A program made the position numbers and the translations under genes. Shown here piece after piece: positions 1 to 37,835 of a DNA stretch of 37,835 nucleotides. Numbering within the stretch: the first letter of the stretch is position 1; each line of letters starts with the position of its first letter. Where the stretch lies: positions 1 through 37,835 of IMG/VR virus record IMGVR_UViG_3300025529_000020, one strand, 5' to 3'. This DNA comes from a virus. The notes beneath the pieces were generated by a model. That model was not told where the DNA came from, searched no databases, and worked only from the letters and a program-made list of their open reading frames with translations.

Positions 1-127
1 GAGTCCCGATGTTGCCGGACGCGGTCTCGTGAACCACCCATCCCAGCCCCGCAGTCGGGAAATGCGCGACCCAGCGCACCTCGTTGATCCCGTGTCCCGC
101 TGCCTGCAGTCCCGGTGCCCACATGTA
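1..127. repeat. Terminal direct repeat: exact duplicate of 37709-37835 (circular-closure overlap)
   Basis: First 127 nt of the window are identical to the last 127 nt; the match ends at 128. Confidence 0.9.
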
Positions 128-6632: not shown

Positions 6633-7048
6633 GGGACCTCATCCCCTCGTCGACGTTCTGGGGGAGGGCCGTACGCAGACAGCCTGCTCCGGTCACGCGC
6701 TGTCCAGTGTTGGCGTATCGGCACCGTCATCACCCCACCGTGTCCCATCACACGCGCGATCTCCGCGCGCTCGTCCGGGGACAACACGGTGCCGACCGGG
6801 CGACCATCCGCACGCCACGTGTAGTCCCCGATGGTTTCCGATGAAACCCCCAGCGGGTTAGCGAACGTGCGTATGGCGACACGAAGCACGATAGGCTCCA
6901 ACGCGGCGGGAAGCGGGGCATCGACTGACAGCCCCGCTTCCACACGCACCGCGGTCTCGGCGTCTTCCAACGCCGCTTGGACACGCTCGTGCTCCGTGTC
7001 AGGCACCGGTTGGGGATACCGCGCGAGAAACTGCTGTACAGTTGGCAC
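6620..7048 (-). CDS. Head-tail connector protein (gp6-like)
   Basis: 142-aa ORF directly downstream of major capsid gene. Confidence 0.5.
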   Translation of the reverse strand: MPTVQQFLARYPQPVPDTEHERVQAALEDAETAVRVEAGLSVDAPLPAALEPIVLRVAIRTFANPLGVSSETIGDYTWRADGRPVGTVLSPDERAEIARVMGHGGVMTVPIRQHWTARDRSRLSAYGPPPERRRGDEVPWWR

Positions 7049-7064
7049 GGTATCTCACCACCTA

Positions 7065-8659: not shown

Positions 8660-9414
8660 GCATCACCTTCTCCTGCCTCGTCTTCCTTACGCCGCTGCTG
8701 TTCCAACTCACGGCGAAACGCGTTCAGGTTGGCATATTCAAGGTTGTCCCACATTGTCGCGTACTGCTGGGACGTTGGATGCAACCGGTAGCGACCCCTG
8801 CCAAAATACGGCTCAACAGTGCACTTGCAACCACGGTGCCAATGCCGCCCTGCCCCTGCAGCCCACGCGGACGAGTACACGGGACCGCGGGATGCCAACA
8901 TTGCGCAGAACGCACAACAGCGCGCACGCGCGATCCTTGCCCACCTCACTCGGCGTGGCTCCGCCTGCATGAGCGCGGCCAACGCGGTACGGCCACCCGC
9001 CATGGACGTGCGCGTAGCATCCAGACTCAGCGCTACAAGTGAACGCCGAGCAGCAGCCTCTTCAGCAAGCCCATCCTCCACGAGCGCGGTGACATACGCC
9101 GGACCCCAACGCGTCACCGACTCGCTCCATGCCCACGGATCCAGCTGATCCAGGATCACGGACGTGAACGGGTCTTGCACACCCTCGGCCGCACGAAACC
9201 GCTCATAGTACCTTTGCGCTGTTTCCGCGGACAACCGATACGCGGACGCTACCTCAGGAGCCTGCTCCGCCACCCATGAAGCGAACGCTGCAGGATCAAA
9301 CGCAACCTCGTCAGTCCACTCCGCCTCAAATGAACGGAGCAGGCTCTCCAGAATACCTAACTGAGCGGTGCGATGCGCTTCAGTGAGCACCGCACCAGCC
9401 TCAGTCACCGCCAC
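8656..9414 (-). CDS. Head morphogenesis / minor capsid protein (SPP1 gp7 / Mu F-like)
   Basis: Position immediately after portal; conserved His/Cys cluster (HWHRGCKC). Confidence 0.55.
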   Translation of the reverse strand: MAVTEAGAVLTEAHRTAQLGILESLLRSFEAEWTDEVAFDPAAFASWVAEQAPEVASAYRLSAETAQRYYERFRAAEGVQDPFTSVILDQLDPWAWSESVTRWGPAYVTALVEDGLAEEAAARRSLVALSLDATRTSMAGGRTALAALMQAEPRRVRWARIARARCCAFCAMLASRGPVYSSAWAAGAGRHWHRGCKCTVEPYFGRGRYRLHPTSQQYATMWDNLEYANLNAFRRELEQQRRKEDEAGEGDA

Positions 9415-12620: not shown

Positions 12621-13199
12621 TCAGCCCTCCTGAGCCAGCATTTCCCGGTACTCGGCCAACACCGCAACATTGTCCGGAGATGCTTCCGGACCAGAGTTCG
12701 CGGCAGCGGCAGCAGCGCTCGCACCACCATCCGACACACTCCCAACGCGACCCCGAAGGCGCTCCATGTGGGTACCGCCCAATGCACGCTCCGCGCGGAA
12801 CACGATCTCAAAAATCCGAGCTTTCCGCATCGCGTCCTTTTCCCGATGCATGGCATCCACCAGCGGCAGCAGGCTCTTCAGCACCTCCCAGTCAGAAGGT
12901 TCGAAGTGCGCCACCTGAGCGGAGTGGCACCACGCGGTCCACCACTCCCGGGTCGCGGACAGCCAGCGCTTGGGATTGGGCAGTTCGGGAATTTCTCTCG
13001 CGGAAGTCCCCAGCGGAGCGCCACGAACAGAGTCCGCGGTAGGCTGGGAACTGTCCGGAGCACCGCACGAGGGGCACGCACGGCCGTCCGCATCCCGCAG
13101 AGAACCACAACTCACACACTGTCTACGCCGGACCCCAGTGAAGGGATCCGGGTTGCGTCGTCTACGATTAGGGTTAGGAGGTGGTCCCATACCAGCCAT
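12621..13199 (-). CDS. Putative terminase small subunit (with CxxC...CxxC zinc ribbon)
   Basis: Position between HNH and terminase large subunit; ATG with GGGAGGGA RBS; Arg-rich N-terminus. Confidence 0.5.
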   Translation of the reverse strand: MAGMGPPPNPNRRRRNPDPFTGVRRRQCVSCGSLRDADGRACPSCGAPDSSQPTADSVRGAPLGTSAREIPELPNPKRWLSATREWWTAWCHSAQVAHFEPSDWEVLKSLLPLVDAMHREKDAMRKARIFEIVFRAERALGGTHMERLRGRVGSVSDGGASAAAAAANSGPEASPDNVAVLAEYREMLAQEG

Positions 13200-13382
13200 G
13201 CGATATCCCTCCCTGCCACACCTGACCGAACCCGTGTTCGCGGCCCCGCGCGCACGCGCACGCGCGCGTAGAGGGCGCGTTTGCGCAGGTCAGAGCGCTA
13301 AAGCGTTTTACCAGACCCGTACACGGAGAAAAAAGTGCTATCCGCACGCGCTCTCCGCTCCTCCCGGGTCCGGGGGTACCCC

Positions 13383-13700
13383 CTAGGTCACTTTTTTGTA
13401 ACACCAAAATGGGTGTTGCTCTGCCTCACGAACGCGGCGACGACGTGTCCTCGCTGCTGCTGCAGCACCTTCACGTGAGCTCTTCTTCGCGTGGTGGTAG
13501 CGACACAGTGCCTGCAGGTTGTTCAGCGAGTGGTCATCGCCTGCAATGATGTGGTCTACTTCTGTCGCTACCTCAGTACACCGCGTACCAGTATCGACCC
13601 TGATCCACTCGCAGCGATACCCAGCGCGCTCAAGAACGGTAACGCGAATGCGTCTCCAGTTTCGCGGCAGACGGTCGCCGCGGTTGCTTGTACTCCACAT
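13383..13700 (-). CDS. HNH endonuclease (terminase-associated)
   Basis: CxxC ... EVDHII ... NLQALCRYHH motifs; ATG at 13700 with GGAGGGG RBS (ORF-track start at 13712 is an upstream GTG). Confidence 0.8.
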   Translation of the reverse strand: MWSTSNRGDRLPRNWRRIRVTVLERAGYRCEWIRVDTGTRCTEVATEVDHIIAGDDHSLNNLQALCRYHHAKKSSREGAAAAARTRRRRVREAEQHPFWCYKKVT

Positions 13701-13723
13701 ACACCCCTCCACATGAATGGAGG

Positions 13724-13800
13724 GCTGGGGGATCTTATATGGGGGATCCCTTTCCTACGCGGGGATCCCTATAGGGGGATCCATATCGGGGATGGCGTTT
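13724..13800. repeat. Four to five direct GGGGATC(C) repeats interleaved with CCTACGCGG, in the leader of the HNH/terminase operon
   Basis: GGGGATC at about 13727, 13742, 13761, 13777 and 13788; CCTACGCGG at 13754 and 13802. Confidence 0.6.
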
Positions 13801-13836
13801 CCCTACGCGGCCCTCCTTAGACGGTCACCGCAAAAC

Positions 13837-13879
13837 GCGGAGTACAGCTCCCGGTCTGCCCCAGGGCACTGTACTCCGC
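13837..13879 (-). promoter_or_regulatory. Leader hairpin (11-bp stem GCGGAGTACAG/CTGTACTCCGC) followed by GUUUUG on the minus strand
   Basis: Perfect 11-bp inverted repeat with 21-nt loop between promoter-like motif and HNH gene. Confidence 0.5.
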
Positions 13880-13884
13880 TACAT

Positions 13885-13910
13885 AGTGTTACAGGTCCCG
13901 GTGCGCGCTC
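13885..13910 (-). promoter_or_regulatory. Conserved motif site 1 (GTTACAGGTCC ... GCGCGC), candidate phage promoter/operator
   Basis: One of five copies of the same motif, all in intergenic DNA upstream of minus-strand operons. Confidence 0.5.
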
Positions 13911-13917
13911 TCCTAGA

Positions 13918-14018
13918 GGGTGACGAGTGACGAGTTTTTTCGTAGTTTTAGATTGTTCTATATGTATGTATATAGAGCAATATAAAACTAATGTTTAAAT
14001 CGTCATTCGTCATCACTC
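13918..14018. repeat. AT-rich island A, bounded by inverted repeats GTGACGAGTGACGAG / TCGTCATTCGTCATCAC
   Basis: About 65 bp of AT-rich DNA with nested palindrome CTATAT...ATATAG in an otherwise GC-rich genome, flanked by imperfect 15-bp inverted arms. Confidence 0.6.
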
Positions 14019-14030
14019 ACCCCATCTCCT

Positions 14031-15635
14031 CTACTCCGCGTAGACCGCTCCCTCACTCTCCGCGCTCTCCCCAGCGTCTGCCCATTCGATCCGCAGTCGG
14101 TGCGGACCAACGGTGCGTGGCTGTCCGAGTCTTACCGGGTAGATGATGACCCTGTTGATCGCGAGGTGGAGTAGGTCCCGCACCAGCGCTCGCTGTCCGC
14201 GTTCCACTGCGTCCCGCATCGCATCTGCCAGCGTTTCCGGATCGTCCACGAACCCCAAGTCCAACGTTGCTTGTGACCGCGCGATAGCGGCCTGCAGCTC
14301 TCGGAGTTCCGCGGACAGTGACCGCATCTCCGAGACGAACAGCTCCGGAGCGTCCTCGTAGGCTCCTGCCCTGAACGCGTCGTGGAGTCTTTGACGTACG
14401 GTCTCGATTTCTTGGATCCGTGCGCGCTTCGCCGCGATTTCTTCGGACTCGCTTGGTTGTTGTCGAGCTGTCCACCGCTCAGCGATGATCAGTGCGAGCA
14501 TGTCCGTGGGTTCAAGCGCGGTTATTCGGTTGAGCCACTCGGCGATCACGAGCTGCTCTGCGCGTTCTCTGGTGATCCGCGCTGGTGCGGGACATGTGGC
14601 TATCGCGGACGTGACGGATGCGCACACCTGTTGCACACCGGATGCTGGTGCGGAGCGTCCGCATGTGCCACACACCGCGATCCCGGTCAGGATGTGTTTT
14701 CTGTGTCTCGCAGTGGGGCGTACGATGCGGCGACGTGTAGAAAACGTGGTGATGTTCTTTGTGAGCCTTTCGAGGAGCTGCTCTCGCTCGTCCGGCGTGA
14801 GCACACCTTCCCCGATGCTGACGAGTCGACCTTCCTCGTCACGGTAAGGTTCTACCAGGTGGGATTTGCCGTTGTTTGCGCGGCCCGCTACCTGCAGCCC
14901 TGCGATTGCGGGGTTGGTGATCAGGCTGATGTAGGTCGTGACGTACCAGATGCCTCCACTGGGGCCGCGGATGCCGAGTTCGTTCTGTTCAGCAACCACG
15001 CTACGCGCTGAGCGTCCGCCGAGAATCTGTTCCGCTCCCCAACGCAGGACCTGGGCACGCGTTCGACCGTCTTCGGTCGGTGTGGTGTAGTCGGGACGTA
15101 CCTTCCGTGTTTTCGGATCTAAGAGGAGTCCCCACGGCACGCTTCCCCCGATCCATTCTCCGTCTCGGCGTTGCCGGGCCTTGCTGATGTGGATTCTGTG
15201 GGATAGGTCAACGCTGTACTGTCGAGCACGCTCCGCCTCATCGATGATGTGGCGACGGTCATGCTCGTCCAGCGTGTCGTAGCGGTCCCAGTAGAAGATG
15301 ACCCGGTGCTTGCCCAGCATGGGGAGTACGTCTTCTGCGCCTCGACGAGTAAGGCGGTCCAGCCTGAAAACCCACAGTGCCTCGACTTCTCCGCGTTGTA
15401 GTGCGGCAAGTGCCTTTCGGAACACCGGCCGTTCCCGGTCCGCGTATGCGGAGCCTAATTCTCGCCACACGTGCCGTACTTGGCTGCCTACCTGTGCTGC
15501 CCAGTGCCGGCCGATTTCCTCCTGTTCCCGGATGGAGACTTCGCGTAGGCGGTCGCCTTCGGAGAGAACCCGGGATTTCCTCACGTACAGGTCCACCGTT
15601 TTTGGTGGTGGGAGTAGTTGGGAGTGGGGGAACAC
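14031..15635 (-). CDS. Large serine recombinase (phage integrase)
   Basis: N-terminal resolvase-type catalytic motif VDLYVRKSRVLSEG...RLDRLTRR, central recombinase domain, Cys-rich zinc ribbon (CGTCGR...C...C) and coiled-coil C-terminus; GTG at 15635 with GGAGG RBS. Confidence 0.8.
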   Translation of the reverse strand: MFPHSQLLPPPKTVDLYVRKSRVLSEGDRLREVSIREQEEIGRHWAAQVGSQVRHVWRELGSAYADRERPVFRKALAALQRGEVEALWVFRLDRLTRRGAEDVLPMLGKHRVIFYWDRYDTLDEHDRRHIIDEAERARQYSVDLSHRIHISKARQRRDGEWIGGSVPWGLLLDPKTRKVRPDYTTPTEDGRTRAQVLRWGAEQILGGRSARSVVAEQNELGIRGPSGGIWYVTTYISLITNPAIAGLQVAGRANNGKSHLVEPYRDEEGRLVSIGEGVLTPDEREQLLERLTKNITTFSTRRRIVRPTARHRKHILTGIAVCGTCGRSAPASGVQQVCASVTSAIATCPAPARITRERAEQLVIAEWLNRITALEPTDMLALIIAERWTARQQPSESEEIAAKRARIQEIETVRQRLHDAFRAGAYEDAPELFVSEMRSLSAELRELQAAIARSQATLDLGFVDDPETLADAMRDAVERGQRALVRDLLHLAINRVIIYPVRLGQPRTVGPHRLRIEWADAGESAESEGAVYAE

Positions 15636-15762: not shown

Positions 15763-15853
15763 GGGACCATCCCCACATGCGTGGGGAGCAGGTTTTGAGG
15801 TCCGTCTAGAGTAAATCCAGGCCGGGACCATCCCCACATGCGTGGGGAGCAGG
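15763..15853. repeat. Two 30-bp direct repeats GGGACCATCCCCACATGCGTGGGGAGCAGG (15763-15792 and 15824-15853), each with an internal hairpin
   Basis: Exact 30-bp duplication with 61-bp period; each copy contains palindrome CCCCAC-ATGC-GTGGGG. Confidence 0.8.
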
Positions 15854-19539: not shown

Positions 19540-19580
19540 CCTATTGGGGTTACAGGTCCTGGTCTCCGGTAGCGCGCGGG
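19540..19580 (-). promoter_or_regulatory. Conserved motif site 2 (GTTACAGGTCC ... GCGCGC)
   Basis: GTTACAGGTCC at 19549-19559 and GCGCGC at 19572-19577, between sigma gene stop and next gene start. Confidence 0.5.
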
Positions 19581-19602: not shown

Positions 19603-20556
19603 TTACGCGGCTGCCAGCTCGACTACTACCCGCCTCAGCTTTCTCAGCGCAGCGGCCTTGAGGGAACGTACACGTCCGGGATCGATTCCCATGATGTGCG
19701 CGGTCTCGGCGACACTGAGTTCCGGACCGCCCAGTCCGGTCAGGTGTACCAGTGCCTCACGCTCCCGGGGGGACACGTGATCGAGCAGACGATGCACGAG
19801 GTCCCGAGTTTCCACACTGGCTAGTGCAGCGGCCGAGCGGTGGCACTCCGCCGTGTCCCCGATGGTCTGCGTGGCGCTCTCGTCACACAGTTCCGACACC
19901 GGGGTATCCACGGACACATAATGTAGGGCTTCGTGGATGGCATCGAACTGTGCGTAGGACAGACCACGTGCGGTTTTGTCGTCTAGCTGCTGTGCCACAT
20001 CTAGCCCTTCCCGCTCCCAGCGTTCAATACGGCGGTCCAGGATGGCGGCAGCCATGTCATCTCCGGAGTCCGCCATGTCCTGCAGTTCTCGGCCGGTCAA
20101 CCCCTCACGGTGGGCCCATTCGCGTGCGAGTACCGGGTCGTGTCCACACGCTTCCATGGCTCTCCAGTAGCGGTGCTGTGCGGACGAGGAGATGCGGAAC
20201 GGGGAGCTGGCTACAGCGGCCTCCCTCACAGCGTTCTGGATGTGGCGATACGCCACGGTCATAGGTTCTGCAGAACCATCCGGGTCGTAGTCTCGCAGAA
20301 CCTCCACCAGCGCCATTAGCGCGGCCTGGTAGAGGTCCGCGTACTCCGCACTACGCTGGTAGTTTCTGACCAGGTGGTGGATCTGGTCTTCGTAACGTGC
20401 GGCAAGGATGACAAGCCCTTCGTCTCCGTACGCGGGGAGCTGACGGTTGGGGACGTGATCAAGGCCCAGACGTTCTTCGTAGGCACGTGCGGCGGTGCGG
20501 ACTGTGGCACGGACGATGTGTGCGGGGGATCTGGTGGCGATCAGTTCATCCAACAT
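19603..20556 (-). CDS. Phage-encoded sigma-70 family RNA polymerase sigma factor
   Basis: Region 2-like segment DLYQAALMALVEVLRDYDP and region 4-like HTH LSVAETAHIMGIDPGRVRSLKAAALRKLRR. Confidence 0.75.
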   Translation of the reverse strand: MLDELIATRSPAHIVRATVRTAARAYEERLGLDHVPNRQLPAYGDEGLVILAARYEDQIHHLVRNYQRSAEYADLYQAALMALVEVLRDYDPDGSAEPMTVAYRHIQNAVREAAVASSPFRISSSAQHRYWRAMEACGHDPVLAREWAHREGLTGRELQDMADSGDDMAAAILDRRIERWEREGLDVAQQLDDKTARGLSYAQFDAIHEALHYVSVDTPVSELCDESATQTIGDTAECHRSAAALASVETRDLVHRLLDHVSPREREALVHLTGLGGPELSVAETAHIMGIDPGRVRSLKAAALRKLRRVVVELAAA

Positions 20557-29614: not shown

Positions 29615-29635
29615 ATGTCGCTCCTTTCGCTGTAT

Positions 29636-29672
29636 TCCTAGTTACAGGTCCGCAGCGTGGGGAGCGCGCGTA
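29636..29672 (-). promoter_or_regulatory. Conserved motif site 3 (GTTACAGGTCC ... GGGGAGCGCGCG) with adjacent A5T5 tract
   Basis: First copy of a tandemly duplicated ~117-bp promoter-like unit upstream of the exonuclease gene. Confidence 0.5.
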
Positions 29673-29752
29673 CCGTGGCAGAAAAATTTTTGGTCGACGT
29701 GCTCCGCACCTGGTGAGGGTTCGGATCGCCACGTCGCCCCTTCCGGATCTGT

Positions 29753-29790
29753 CTCTAGTTACAGGTCCGCGGCGGTGGGAGCGCGCGGGT
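29753..29790 (-). promoter_or_regulatory. Conserved motif site 4 (tandem duplicate of site 3)
   Basis: Second copy: GTTACAGGTCC at 29758-29768, GCGCGC at 29781-29786, A4T4 tract at 29798-29808. Confidence 0.5.
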
Positions 29791-29883
29791 CGCGGCAGAA
29801 AATTTTCTGACCGACGTAGCTGCAGCGGGATGGGCACGGAGAGTGAGGGCATGCCCTACGCGGAGTAGAGGAGATGGGGGAGT

Positions 29884-29977
29884 GGTGACGAGTGACGATT
29901 TAGACCTTGTTTTTGTAGTGCTATAGGAGAACCCATAGAACAATGCAAAAACAGGGTCTACATCGTCACTCGTCACC
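29884..29977. repeat. AT-rich island B, bounded by perfect 16-bp inverted repeats GGTGACGAGTGACGAT / ATCGTCACTCGTCACC
   Basis: Perfect 16-bp inverted arms, inner inverted repeat AGACCTTGTTTTTG/CAAAAACAGGGTCT, AT-rich centre. Confidence 0.7.
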
Positions 29978-33989: not shown

Positions 33990-34036
33990 GTAGGACCTAT
34001 AGGTGTTACAGGTCCCAGCACCGGGGAGTGCGCGTA
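33990..34036 (-). promoter_or_regulatory. Conserved motif site 5 (GTTACAGGTCC ... GGGGAGTGCGCG) with GGACCT...AGGTCC inverted repeat
   Basis: GTTACAGGTCC at 34005-34015; overlaps the stop codon of the upstream holin-like gene. Confidence 0.5.
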
Positions 34037-35981: not shown

Positions 35982-37835
35982 CTATAGTCCGACAATCGCT
36001 CCGCGGAACAGTCGAATCTCCGTTCCCGCCGTATGGGGTTTGTGGATCCCGTTGGTAGCGCGCTGCACAGTGAACGTCTGCGTGGTGCCTGTTCCGGAGA
36101 TCGAGGCCACGCGTACAAGCTCCCCACCAACGAACATGTCCACAGGAAACGCCTGCGGCTCTTCTTCCGTGGTCACCCAGCGCGGTCCCCGAGTGGTGCG
36201 CACCGTGAACGTGGTTTGGACGCTGTCAACGTCCTCGTCCAGCTCCGCACCGGCAGTGTCAGCGCGGCACTGATCCTGCGGACCCACGTCCCCATCCGGA
36301 TCCGCGATCACCCCAATGAGCAGCGGTCCACCGGACGAGGCATTGAACGTCACCTCCCACGTGTGCGGGCCTAGACGCTCCTCATAGCCCTCGATCTGCA
36401 GTTCGATGGGCTCTGGTGGTAGCCACGGCGGTGGGTTGATGATCTGCAGGGCATCCCCCGAGTCGCGCACAGCCACGATGTCGACGAGGCCAGGGTTGCG
36501 TGCCAGGTTGATCGTGACCGTGGGGTACCGGGCATCGTCCCACGTGCCCAGGTGCAGCCGCCAATGCGCTAGGTCCCACAATTGACGTTCGTGGGCTGCA
36601 TGTAACGTCTCGGACTGCTCGTAGCGTCCCACGCCCAGTGGAGGCGGCTGCACTGATAGTGCGCCTTCCTCCAGCACCGCGCGGTACTCCGTACCCCGTG
36701 GCATGCTCACGGTCACATCATTAGCTAGCCGCTGGTCATCCTCGATAGGCTCCCACGGCTCGCTGATGTGTCCCGCACTGTAGTCCAGCACCACGGACAC
36801 CGCGGTATCGGTACGCGCTCGGCCACGGAACACCAGTCCCCCACGTGCCGCACACGTGCCGTGTTTGCGTGCTGTGGCGAACTCCCCCACGGTCATGCCG
36901 CCGAGAGCACTCCCACGGCCGTGGTGGAGCACATCAACGTGGTGGGATCCCACATGCATCCCGCCGAGCGCATCCGTGACCGCGGTGCGAGAACCCGCAA
37001 CTGCAGCACCGTCCACCGTGAAACGGCTCACGGCCGCACCCTGCGGTACCGCGTACCCTGATGCATGACCACCAAAGCTCAGGCCACCGGACGCTGTCGC
37101 GCCAGCTCGACGAGCCTCAGCGTGACCGCCCATGGTCAGCCAGTGCATCGCCCACGTCCAGCGTGGCGGTGGTGCGGGGCCGAGTGGACCGTCATCGGCG
37201 ACAGCTACGTGGGACACCCACAGTGAGGGTGGGTAGCCCTGGCCGCGGTGAAGACGTAGCGCAAGGTCGATTGCCGCCAACGTTTCAGGACCGACAACAC
37301 CATCGACTGGTAGCCCGTAGTCAGCCTGAAACGCTTGGACCGCTGTGACCGTTTCCCCACCATAGTCGCCATCCGCACCGTACAGCGGCAGCGGATACCC
37401 CAGCTCGAGCAGGGCTTCCTGCATGGCGGTGATTTCCGTATCCCCACGCGAAGCATCCGACTGGCCAGGGAGCAAGATGATACCGCGGCGGTAGCGGTAC
37501 CCGGTCAGCACCAGCTGGCCATGGAACGTGTACCCATTCCAACGGTGGATCCGTGTACGGTCACCAGCGGGGTTTGTCACCCGAGACTCGAAGAAGGCAC
37601 TTCCATCAGTATGGAATTCGACCAACCACCACTGGCCGATGGGGACCGCGTTACCTGTCTCTTCTGTCCAGTTGATAGCTGTTGCGGCCAGATCGTCAGG
37701 CTGGAGCCGAGTCCCGATGTTGCCGGACGCGGTCTCGTGAACCACCCATCCCAGCCCCGCAGTCGGGAAATGCGCGACCCAGCGCACCTCGTTGATCCCG
37801 TGTCCCGCTGCCTGCAGTCCCGGTGCCCACATGTA
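35982..37835 (-). CDS. Tail protein with peptidoglycan-binding domain (3' portion; N-terminus wraps to 385-1)
   Basis: 616-aa ORF reaching the window edge; PG-binding-like segment ITAMQEALLELGYPLPLYGADGDYGGETVTAVQAFQADYGLPVDGVVGPETLAAI; in frame with the upstream ATG at 385. Confidence 0.6.
   Translation of the reverse strand, partial: YMWAPGLQAAGHGINEVRWVAHFPTAGLGWVVHETASGNIGTRLQPDDLAATAINWTEETGNAVPIGQWWLVEFHTDGSAFFESRVTNPAGDRTRIHRWNGYTFHGQLVLTGYRYRRGIILLPGQSDASRGDTEITAMQEALLELGYPLPLYGADGDYGGETVTAVQAFQADYGLPVDGVVGPETLAAIDLALRLHRGQGYPPSLWVSHVAVADDGPLGPAPPPRWTWAMHWLTMGGHAEARRAGATASGGLSFGGHASGYAVPQGAAVSRFTVDGAAVAGSRTAVTDALGGMHVGSHHVDVLHHGRGSALGGMTVGEFATARKHGTCAARGGLVFRGRARTDTAVSVVLDYSAGHISEPWEPIEDDQRLANDVTVSMPRGTEYRAVLEEGALSVQPPPLGVGRYEQSETLHAAHERQLWDLAHWRLHLGTWDDARYPTVTINLARNPGLVDIVAVRDSGDALQIINPPPWLPPEPIELQIEGYEERLGPHTWEVTFNASSGGPLLIGVIADPDGDVGPQDQCRADTAGAELDEDVDSVQTTFTVRTTRGPRWVTTEEEPQAFPVDMFVGGELVRVASISGTGTTQTFTVQRATNGIHKPHTAGTEIRLFRGAIVGL
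37709..37835. repeat. Terminal direct repeat: exact duplicate of 1-127
   Basis: Identical to window start; an ORF reads through the junction in frame. Confidence 0.9.

Follow-up and report, generated by a model that had tools for sequence, protein, structure and literature searches.

A conserved control region between the integrase and HNH endonuclease genes of an uncultured actinobacterial phage, with a candidate late promoter and structured RNA leader

What does the gap between the integrase and HNH endonuclease genes of an uncultured phage control, and does it act on transcription, on RNA or on packaging? The stretch of DNA analysed, hereafter the window, comprises 37,835 nt of IMG/VR record IMGVR_UViG_3300025529_000020. 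The original prediction placed in this gap a promoter-like motif, a strong hairpin followed by GUUUUG and an array of GGGGATC(C) repeats, all of which we find on the minus strand, far beyond chance expectation (Table 1). Our findings confirm that the interval is a real and conserved control region, whose role as an antitermination switch or a packaging site is not proven; a structured RNA leader is better supported than a classical terminator under antitermination control, and the packaging site maps elsewhere.

The first 127 bases of the window (1-127) are repeated exactly at 37709-37835 as a direct terminal repeat, and because these ends are identical, we take the window to be a complete phage genome of 37,708 bp that was assembled as a circle, and not a prophage. 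Its source is a temperate actinobacterial phage, uncultured and of siphovirus type. Scans with PHROGs and Pfam gave the gene order HNH, TerS (terminase small subunit), TerL, portal, head, tail, lysin, replication genes, sigma factor and integrase, with TerL and then an SPP1-type portal downstream of TerS in transcript order. The genes neighbouring the leader all lie on the minus strand, and the region of interest is the 318-bp intergenic stretch at 13713-14030. For the integrase, which has no close relatives among reference genomes, we prefer the 534-aa form (14031-15635) since the 99% identical protein P0021 has such a form, and for HNH the ATG at 13700 is a likelier start than the GTG at 13712 because the 90% identical homologue P0001 is 105 aa long. 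A 68-aa open reading frame on the plus strand (13717-13923) was ruled out as coding, since its GC pattern is unlike that of coding DNA and it carries 12- and 13-nt indels across lineages.

Table 1. Positions of the main features in and around the integrase-HNH gap, in window coordinates.
Feature	Position	Strand	Basis or remark
Integrase (large serine recombinase)	14031-15635 (long form to 15839)	-	Resolvase, Recombinase and zinc-ribbon domains; phrog_95
AT-rich imperfect palindrome, 43-nt arms	13920-14013		flanked by GTGACGA twice and TCGTCAT twice; directly upstream of motif
GC-rich 10-mer GGAGAGCGCG	13904-13913	-	upstream of late motif
Promoter-like core GGACCTGTAAC	13888-13898	-	one of five copies
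Five motif sites	34005-34014, 29758-29767, 29641-29650, 19549-19558, 13888-13897	-	exact matches
Sigma-70-family factor, phage-encoded	19603-20556	-	profile match; regions 2 and 4
Hairpin P1	13837-13879	-	folding energy and covariation
GUUUUG directly after P1	13831-13836	-	GUUCUG in the other four lineages
Hairpin P2 (UGCGGU...GCCGCG)	13806-13832	-	encloses SD-like AAGGAGGG
Five-unit repeat array	13727-13795		plus strand GGGG(G)ATC(C); RNA sense (G)GGATCCCC(C), then WATA
Hairpin CCCUCCA/UGGAGGG	13702-13727	-	pairs the HNH Shine-Dalgarno sequence
HNH endonuclease	13383-13700 (GTG start at 13712 possible)	-	profile match
Palindrome GGGGGTACCCCC	13372-13383		overlaps HNH stop; G5-N2-5-C4-5 element at the same place in L060, L077 and L078
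Inferred cos	13339-13351	-	contig termini from at least five datasets
TerS (terminase small subunit)	12621-13199	-	Terminase_7

Three IMG/VR contigs are identical or about 90% identical to the window through the region, while a second lineage (L065-L067, L071 and L075) is about 82-85% identical over 13351-13916 and has other genes upstream. The order of serine integrase, intergenic region and HNH is also kept in L060 and L077, whose integrases are 56-57% identical, and L078 is an integrated prophage in Streptacidiphilus sp. P02-A3a. A pattern scan of metagenomes returned one true relative and four chance matches. The HNH protein is closest to those of the Streptomyces phage group of Lika, Sujidade and Zemlya, whose layout upstream of HNH differs and is uninformative here. 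Between lineages, the leader is 85-97% identical, compared to 71-80% at the third codon positions of HNH, which indicates that the non-coding sequence is constrained by purifying selection. L071 is the 1,456-bp contig JAFIDK010000041.1 from an assembly labelled 'Algoriphagus aestuarii' (Bacteroidota); it carries an actinophage HNH gene and the leader up to the right genome end, and is probably contaminating phage DNA in a Bacteroidota assembly.

The motif GACCTGTAAC occurs in five exact copies, including that at 13888-13897, all intergenic and all on the minus strand, where 0.08 copies would be expected; its earlier description as promoter-like is borne out. In four of the five sites, the motif takes the bipartite form CGCGCGCTCC-N10-GGACCTGTAAC, with the upstream box 10 nt away, while the copy upstream of HNH is without a CGCGCGCTCC box in register. 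The other four copies are followed by a Shine-Dalgarno (SD) sequence and a start codon 25-34 nt downstream; the late copy instead precedes a leader of about 180 nt. Relatives also carry the motif at equivalent places. Since early-type genes (dNMP kinase and exonuclease) are preceded by it as well, the motif is not specific to late genes. Together, these findings support the view that the motif behaves as a phage-specific promoter, and the phage-encoded sigma-70-family factor is probably its reader. Transcription would start just downstream of the motif, and the start could fall within the left arm of P1.

Two further observations concern the motif sites. In the region 29620-29800, the motif and roughly the first 10 exonuclease codons are duplicated in tandem, with GTGGCGATCCGAACCCTCACC after the site at 29767 and ATGACCATCCGAACCCTCACC after the site at 29650. 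The GC-rich 10-mer GGAGAGCGCG next to the late motif has only three exact copies in the window, on the minus strand, at 13904-13913, at the inferred cos junction (13347-13356) and at the 3' end of the integrase gene (14061-14070); extended similarity between the cos region and the leader around GGAGAGCGCG was not significant.

Following the late motif, P1 is built from a lower stem of 12 bp (11 Watson-Crick pairs and one U-G) and an apical stem of 5 bp, which are separated by a 2/1-nt internal loop and capped by a GGCAGA loop, and in a 90-nt context it folds with -45.5 kcal/mol (z = -4.9), far better than shuffled sequence. Across six sequences, 94% of the cells were paired and six pairs showed compensatory change, giving a covariation score of 0.306, compared to 0.155 in shuffles (none of 500 reached the score) and at most 0.17 in slid controls. 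Among five close sequences, two pairs are fully compensated (A-U to G-C and C-G to U-A), and L071 carries a U-G intermediate that pairs in the sense RNA only. In L077, the lower stem is of unrelated sequence yet still paired, and the apical 22 nt are conserved; the part that is kept reads GUGCCCYGGG(G)CAGACCGGGAGC. Covariation in an inverted repeat can also come from a coevolving dimeric DNA-binding protein. We conclude that P1 is a structure under selection, most simply as RNA, and that its apical part is sequence-specific.

The apical 27 nt of P1 also occur, identical but on a different stem, at 1397-1438 of L079 (IMGVR_UViG_3300049167_000064), in the spacer between tRNA-Thr and tRNA-Trp genes. 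The presence of the apical part in the tRNA array of another phage suggests a specific partner rather than a role in stability alone. L079 is an unrelated 64-kb viral contig, and a partial second copy of the apical part lies at 1199-1215. The covariance model of P1 (R1) had a single match in the window and found no further copies in the window, the 35 loci or phiC31. A search of the region against Rfam gave just chance-level miRNA matches on the AT-rich palindrome (E > 0.1), and a tRNA search of the leader region gave no match. In the late leader of L077, directly after P1 (about 6978-7056), there is a tRNA-like 3' half (TCCGGTTCGATTCCGGACAACTCCA) with a matching 5' acceptor strand, which ARAGORN did not call; phiC31 has a genuine tRNA-Thr gene in this position.

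The variable lower stem and conserved apex, found at the heads of the late operons of two diverged phage lineages and in the L079 spacer, would be in keeping with a discrete and transferable RNA module, a new class of phage cis-acting RNA that a host factor, for instance RNA polymerase or a nuclease involved in processing, would recognise. We consider this idea highly doubtful; were it true, the module may set the 5' end of the late transcript or make transcripts resistant to termination in the style of put RNA.

The remainder of the leader contains two further hairpins. The changes in P2 across lineages are one-sided, from G-C to G-U only, and lend it modest support. All five lineages retain the hairpin that occludes the SD sequence of HNH, which in L075 has lost one closing pair. 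Between the two lies the repeat tract, with exact GGGGATC on the plus strand at 13728, 13742, 13761 and 13775 and a degenerate GGGGATG at 13788, at spacings of 14, 19, 14 and 13 nt. Four of the 13 GGGGATC copies in the window thus fall within 54 bp (67 bp when GGGGATG is included), where 6.4 would be expected in the whole window. The sequence CCGCGTAGG, which reads CCTACGCGG on the opposite strand, is interleaved twice, at 13754-13762 and at 13802-13810, and the array ends 16 nt before the GTG at 13712 and 28 nt before the ATG at 13700.

Relatives have four units rather than five, the difference being an indel of 12-13 nt, and they do not conserve the GATC core: units in L065, L071 and L075 (about 82-85% identical) read GGGAGTCCC, GGGGTCCCCC and GGTGTCCCC. 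Since the GATC core is replaced in relatives, a Dam methylation cluster as in the pac site of phage P1, or any significance of the BamHI site GGATCC, was ruled out. We found no RNA structure supported by covariation in the repeat tract, and a Rho-loading (rut) reading of the C-rich tract was set aside, as its C/G ratio of 1.81 is at the 97th percentile and not distinctive. Arrays of G-runs and C-runs directly 5' of HNH are also present in L077 (three times GGGAT(R)CCCC(C)GGGA), in L060 (five GCCCCC tracts) and in phiC31, and their units are homogenised within each genome, as GGGATCCCC in the window, GGGAT(R)CCCCGGGA in L077 and GGGGGGTGTC in phiC31. Such homogenisation within genomes suggests a sequence-specific binder, a pattern that is commoner in protein-bound arrays. 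To our knowledge, a G-run/C-run array 5' of a packaging HNH gene that recurs from phiC31 to the window phage has not been described before.

Since the original prediction proposed that these repeats might be bound by the terminase small subunit, their distance from the genome ends matters. Independent contigs stop or start in the gap between HNH and TerS, which is why we place cos there, 32 nt after the HNH stop. The right-end contigs L065, L071 and L075 all stop exactly at window position 13351 (...GGAGAG), and the distant L060 stops 43 nt beyond its HNH stop codon, at the equivalent ...ACAGAG; L003 and L066 stop at most 21 nt from the right-end point, and L077 stops 14 nt after its HNH gene. 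Left-end contigs begin at 13339 (AGCAC...), 13324 and 13322. The 11 nt between the ends, CGCGTGCGGAT, are a candidate 3' overhang, going by the contig termini, and would then be lost from both ends. Metagenomic contig termini alone thus sufficed to infer the genome ends. As these ends lie at 13351 and 13339, a cos within the repeat array was ruled out; the array lies 380-445 bp inward of the right end and is separated from it by the entire HNH gene. Close to the right end, a G5-N2-5-C4-5 element lies 15-35 nt from the mapped end in every lineage, and G-run/C-run palindromes are also present elsewhere in the genome. An alternating purine-pyrimidine run, GCGCGCGTGCGCGTGCGCGCG, occupies 13247-13269, between the left genome end and the TerS start.

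The AT-rich block upstream of the late motif is itself repeated. A second copy of the palindrome lies inverted at 29885-29977, between a terminator and promoter motifs, and L060, L077, the prophage L078 and phiC31 each have an analogue of the block in the corresponding position. The two copies belong to inverted units of about 150 bp (13920-14075 and 29820-29977), each upstream of promoter motifs and each made of the palindrome and a 55-bp flank, which is the integrase 3' end in the first unit and looks like a remnant of an integrase 3' end in the second. We ruled out the palindrome as attP, since the window has two copies and the integrated prophage L078, with its border 5' of the integrase gene, contains the element intact; a role in regulation from upstream, or as something like an origin, is more likely. 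Upstream of the integrase, at 15763-15852, two direct units of about 30 bp contain the 18-bp palindrome TCCCCACATGCGTGGGGA, and these repeats are candidate operators or part of attP.

For comparison with a known system, we used the phiC31 records X91149.1 (GenBank, with the depositors' annotation of the cos region) and NC_001978. In both phages, the serine integrase is followed by a terminator, an AT-rich block that contains inverted repeats of TGAC type, the late promoter and a structured RNA; next come direct repeats of G-runs and C-runs immediately 5' of HNH, then HNH itself, the cohesive ends, TerS, TerL and portal. In phiC31, whose integrase gene is seen upstream in the full genome record, the promoter is annotated as 'late lytic' and is followed by tRNA-Thr, gp29 and CIR7. 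There are three direct repeats before the phiC31 HNH gene, TAGGGGGGTGTC, TAGGGGGGTGTCCCC and GGGGGGGTGCCC, and the cohesive ends follow the HNH stop by 30-50 nt overall (46 nt as annotated in phiC31, 32 nt as inferred in the window). On the other hand, the proteins are only remotely related, with integrases 26% identical over 124 aa, HNH similar around the catalytic motif only and no detectable similarity in TerS. Hairpins P1 and P2 of the window stand in the place of a tRNA-Thr gene and gp29 in the phiC31 leader. An annotated repressor site, CIR7, precedes HNH in phiC31, and the window phage encodes a sigma factor of its own. No convincing or significant sequence similarity was found between the phiC31 late promoter and the window motif. 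The likeness to phiC31 is thus, as judged from the sequences, one of conserved architecture and not of close kinship. This match in layout supports both the late-promoter reading of the region and the mapping of the ends, and it upholds the earlier proposal that the interval is a promoter-proximal leader of the operon for HNH, terminase and structural genes. Howe and Smith reportedly described the late promoter and cos region of phiC31 in 1996 in J Bacteriol.

We therefore propose, with about even confidence, that the integrase-HNH gap, which is located at the right end of the virion chromosome, holds the late promoter of the operon for packaging and structural genes together with a 5' leader that acts at the RNA level. 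Transcription would start just downstream of GGACCTGTAAC, probably by RNA polymerase with the phage sigma factor, and the nascent transcript would fold P1 first and P2 second. It would then cross the C-run/G-run tract and the hairpin at the HNH ribosome-binding site and continue via HNH and the joined cos into TerS, TerL, portal, head and tail genes. P1 may serve as a sequence-specific structured 5' element for stability, processing, pausing or weak attenuation, while the G/C-run tract and the SD-occluding hairpin could limit or time HNH translation. The gene order, the ends, the motif excess, the structure of P1 and the selection on the leader are observed; the transcription start, the sigma factor that reads the motif and every role of P1, P2 and the repeats are inferred. 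Several findings argue against the leader reading, including a late motif without the CGCGCGCTCC box, a motif that also precedes early-type genes, a repeat tract without covarying structure and repeat units that are homogenised.

Stable structures at the start of transcripts have precedents. The E. coli ompA leader has a 5'-terminal stem-loop that stabilises the mRNA, and P1 resembles it in its stability and in its place at the 5' terminus, or close to it, of a long polycistronic mRNA but differs in its sequence-conserved apex. Among Gram-positive temperate phages, the late activators RinA, Ltr, ArpU and Alt act at a promoter upstream of terS or HNH (PMC3152322). The window is like these systems in having a single dedicated promoter before the packaging module and a phage-encoded transcription factor; unlike them, its candidate factor is a two-domain member of the sigma-70 family, and the motif precedes four other transcription units.

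The hairpin was originally thought to be a terminator under antitermination control, and while the covariation establishes that it is selected as a structure, its role as a terminator is weakened. According to the lambda-style version of this reading, which we deem unlikely, P1 and its U-tract would form a promoter-proximal intrinsic terminator that halts most transcripts at about 50 nt until a phage factor, or the leader RNA itself, gives the polymerase resistance. In its favour, a very stable hairpin comes right after the promoter-like motif and is followed by GUUUUG in the window, and since the other operons with this promoter type have leaders of 25-34 nt, a long structured leader distinguishes the late operon. 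Two conserved hairpins right after a promoter also resemble the layout of the HK022 put RNA elements. P1 has the GC-rich stem-loop of an intrinsic terminator (12+5 bp stem), but the U-tract is not conserved, as GUUUUG occurs in the window lineage only and four of the five lineages (L003, L065, L071 and L075) have GUUCUG, and this is what makes the terminator and antitermination reading weak. Mycobacterial RNA polymerase is said, by Czyz and colleagues in mBio in 2014, to require a U-tract at intrinsic terminators. A pattern scanner that requires loops of 3-8 nt and no fewer than 5 T among 8 positions did not call P1, which has 4 T, as a terminator, whereas the evident terminators of this phage have long GC stems followed by 4-6 T and are clustered in the early region. 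No strong terminator was found downstream in the late operon (minus strand, 13700 to 400), and no Q, N or other antiterminator family was found by PHROGs and Pfam among about 50 ORFs, several small ones of which are without matches, so that absence is not proven. P1 also matches no Rfam family, and a plain terminator needs no conserved apical loop. The lambda pR'-qut-tR'/Q system and HK022 put likewise combine a late promoter, a transcript that crosses the joined cos to the terminase genes and promoter-adjacent structured RNA, but the window differs from both in having no Q-like gene, no conserved U-tract, no downstream terminators and no match in sequence or family.

The remaining alternatives treat the repeats or P1 as DNA elements. 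It appears quite unlikely that the array is an accessory packaging site, bound by TerS, HNH or the terminase holoenzyme together with the G5-N-C5 element by the cut. Short direct repeats near the packaging site are indeed found at the lambda cosB R sites, at SPP1 pacL/pacR, where TerS binds both sides of the cut, and in the GATC hexamers of P1 pac, and the array shares with such sites its cos-proximal direct repeats, variation in copy number and homogenisation of units per genome. The G5-N2-5-C4-5 element near the right end of every lineage points the same way, as does the 13-mer GGGATGCCCCGGG of L077, which occurs both in the array and beside the genome end (7 of 500 shuffles did likewise). 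Unlike the terminase repeats of lambda, SPP1 and P1, however, the window array lies about 400 bp from the ends, beyond HNH, and since its GATC is not conserved, control by methylation as in phage P1 is excluded. Similarity between the array and end-proximal sequence was not significant in the window, L060 and L075 and weak in L077, and the G-run/C-run palindromes elsewhere in the genome also count against this reading. The array type persists even though TerS of phiC31 has no detectable similarity and HNH is similar around its catalytic motif only, which argues against TerS or HNH as the binder. With the ends mapped outside the array and a like array in a phage with an unrelated TerS, the proposal that the repeats are a TerS or genome-end site has lost ground. 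A role of P1, the repeats or both as DNA operators for a phage repressor or late regulator that silences the late operon in lysogens, as at phiC31 CIR7, seems distinctly improbable to us. X91149 annotates CIR7 directly upstream of the phiC31 G-run repeats and HNH, the P1 inverted repeat overlaps the likely start region, and the repeat sequence TCCCC/GGGGA equals the outer arms of the twice-repeated 18-bp palindrome TCCCCACATGCGTGGGGA. However, the G-U pairs of P1 and its G-U evolutionary intermediate pair in the sense RNA only, L077 has replaced the arms and conserved the non-palindromic apex, no second copy of P1 exists in the genome whereas operators usually recur, and the leader holds no degenerate copy of the 18-bp palindrome.

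Elements of this kind have a precedent in phiC31. What is new are the particular parts, namely the motif in five copies alongside a phage sigma factor, the P1 module and the array of G/C-runs that precedes HNH. The preferred reading as a late promoter with a structured leader offers a sequence-level picture of how late transcription starts in very diverged, uncultured phiC31-like actinophages. It does not overturn current views, and its main use lies in annotation and in the design of experiments in the genetically tractable phiC31. In the prophage L078, we also observed that two HNH genes stand in tandem before TerS (8752-9350), one of phiC31 type and one of window type, with an inverted repeat resembling phiC31 CIR, CTACTCACTGTGAGTAG, just upstream.
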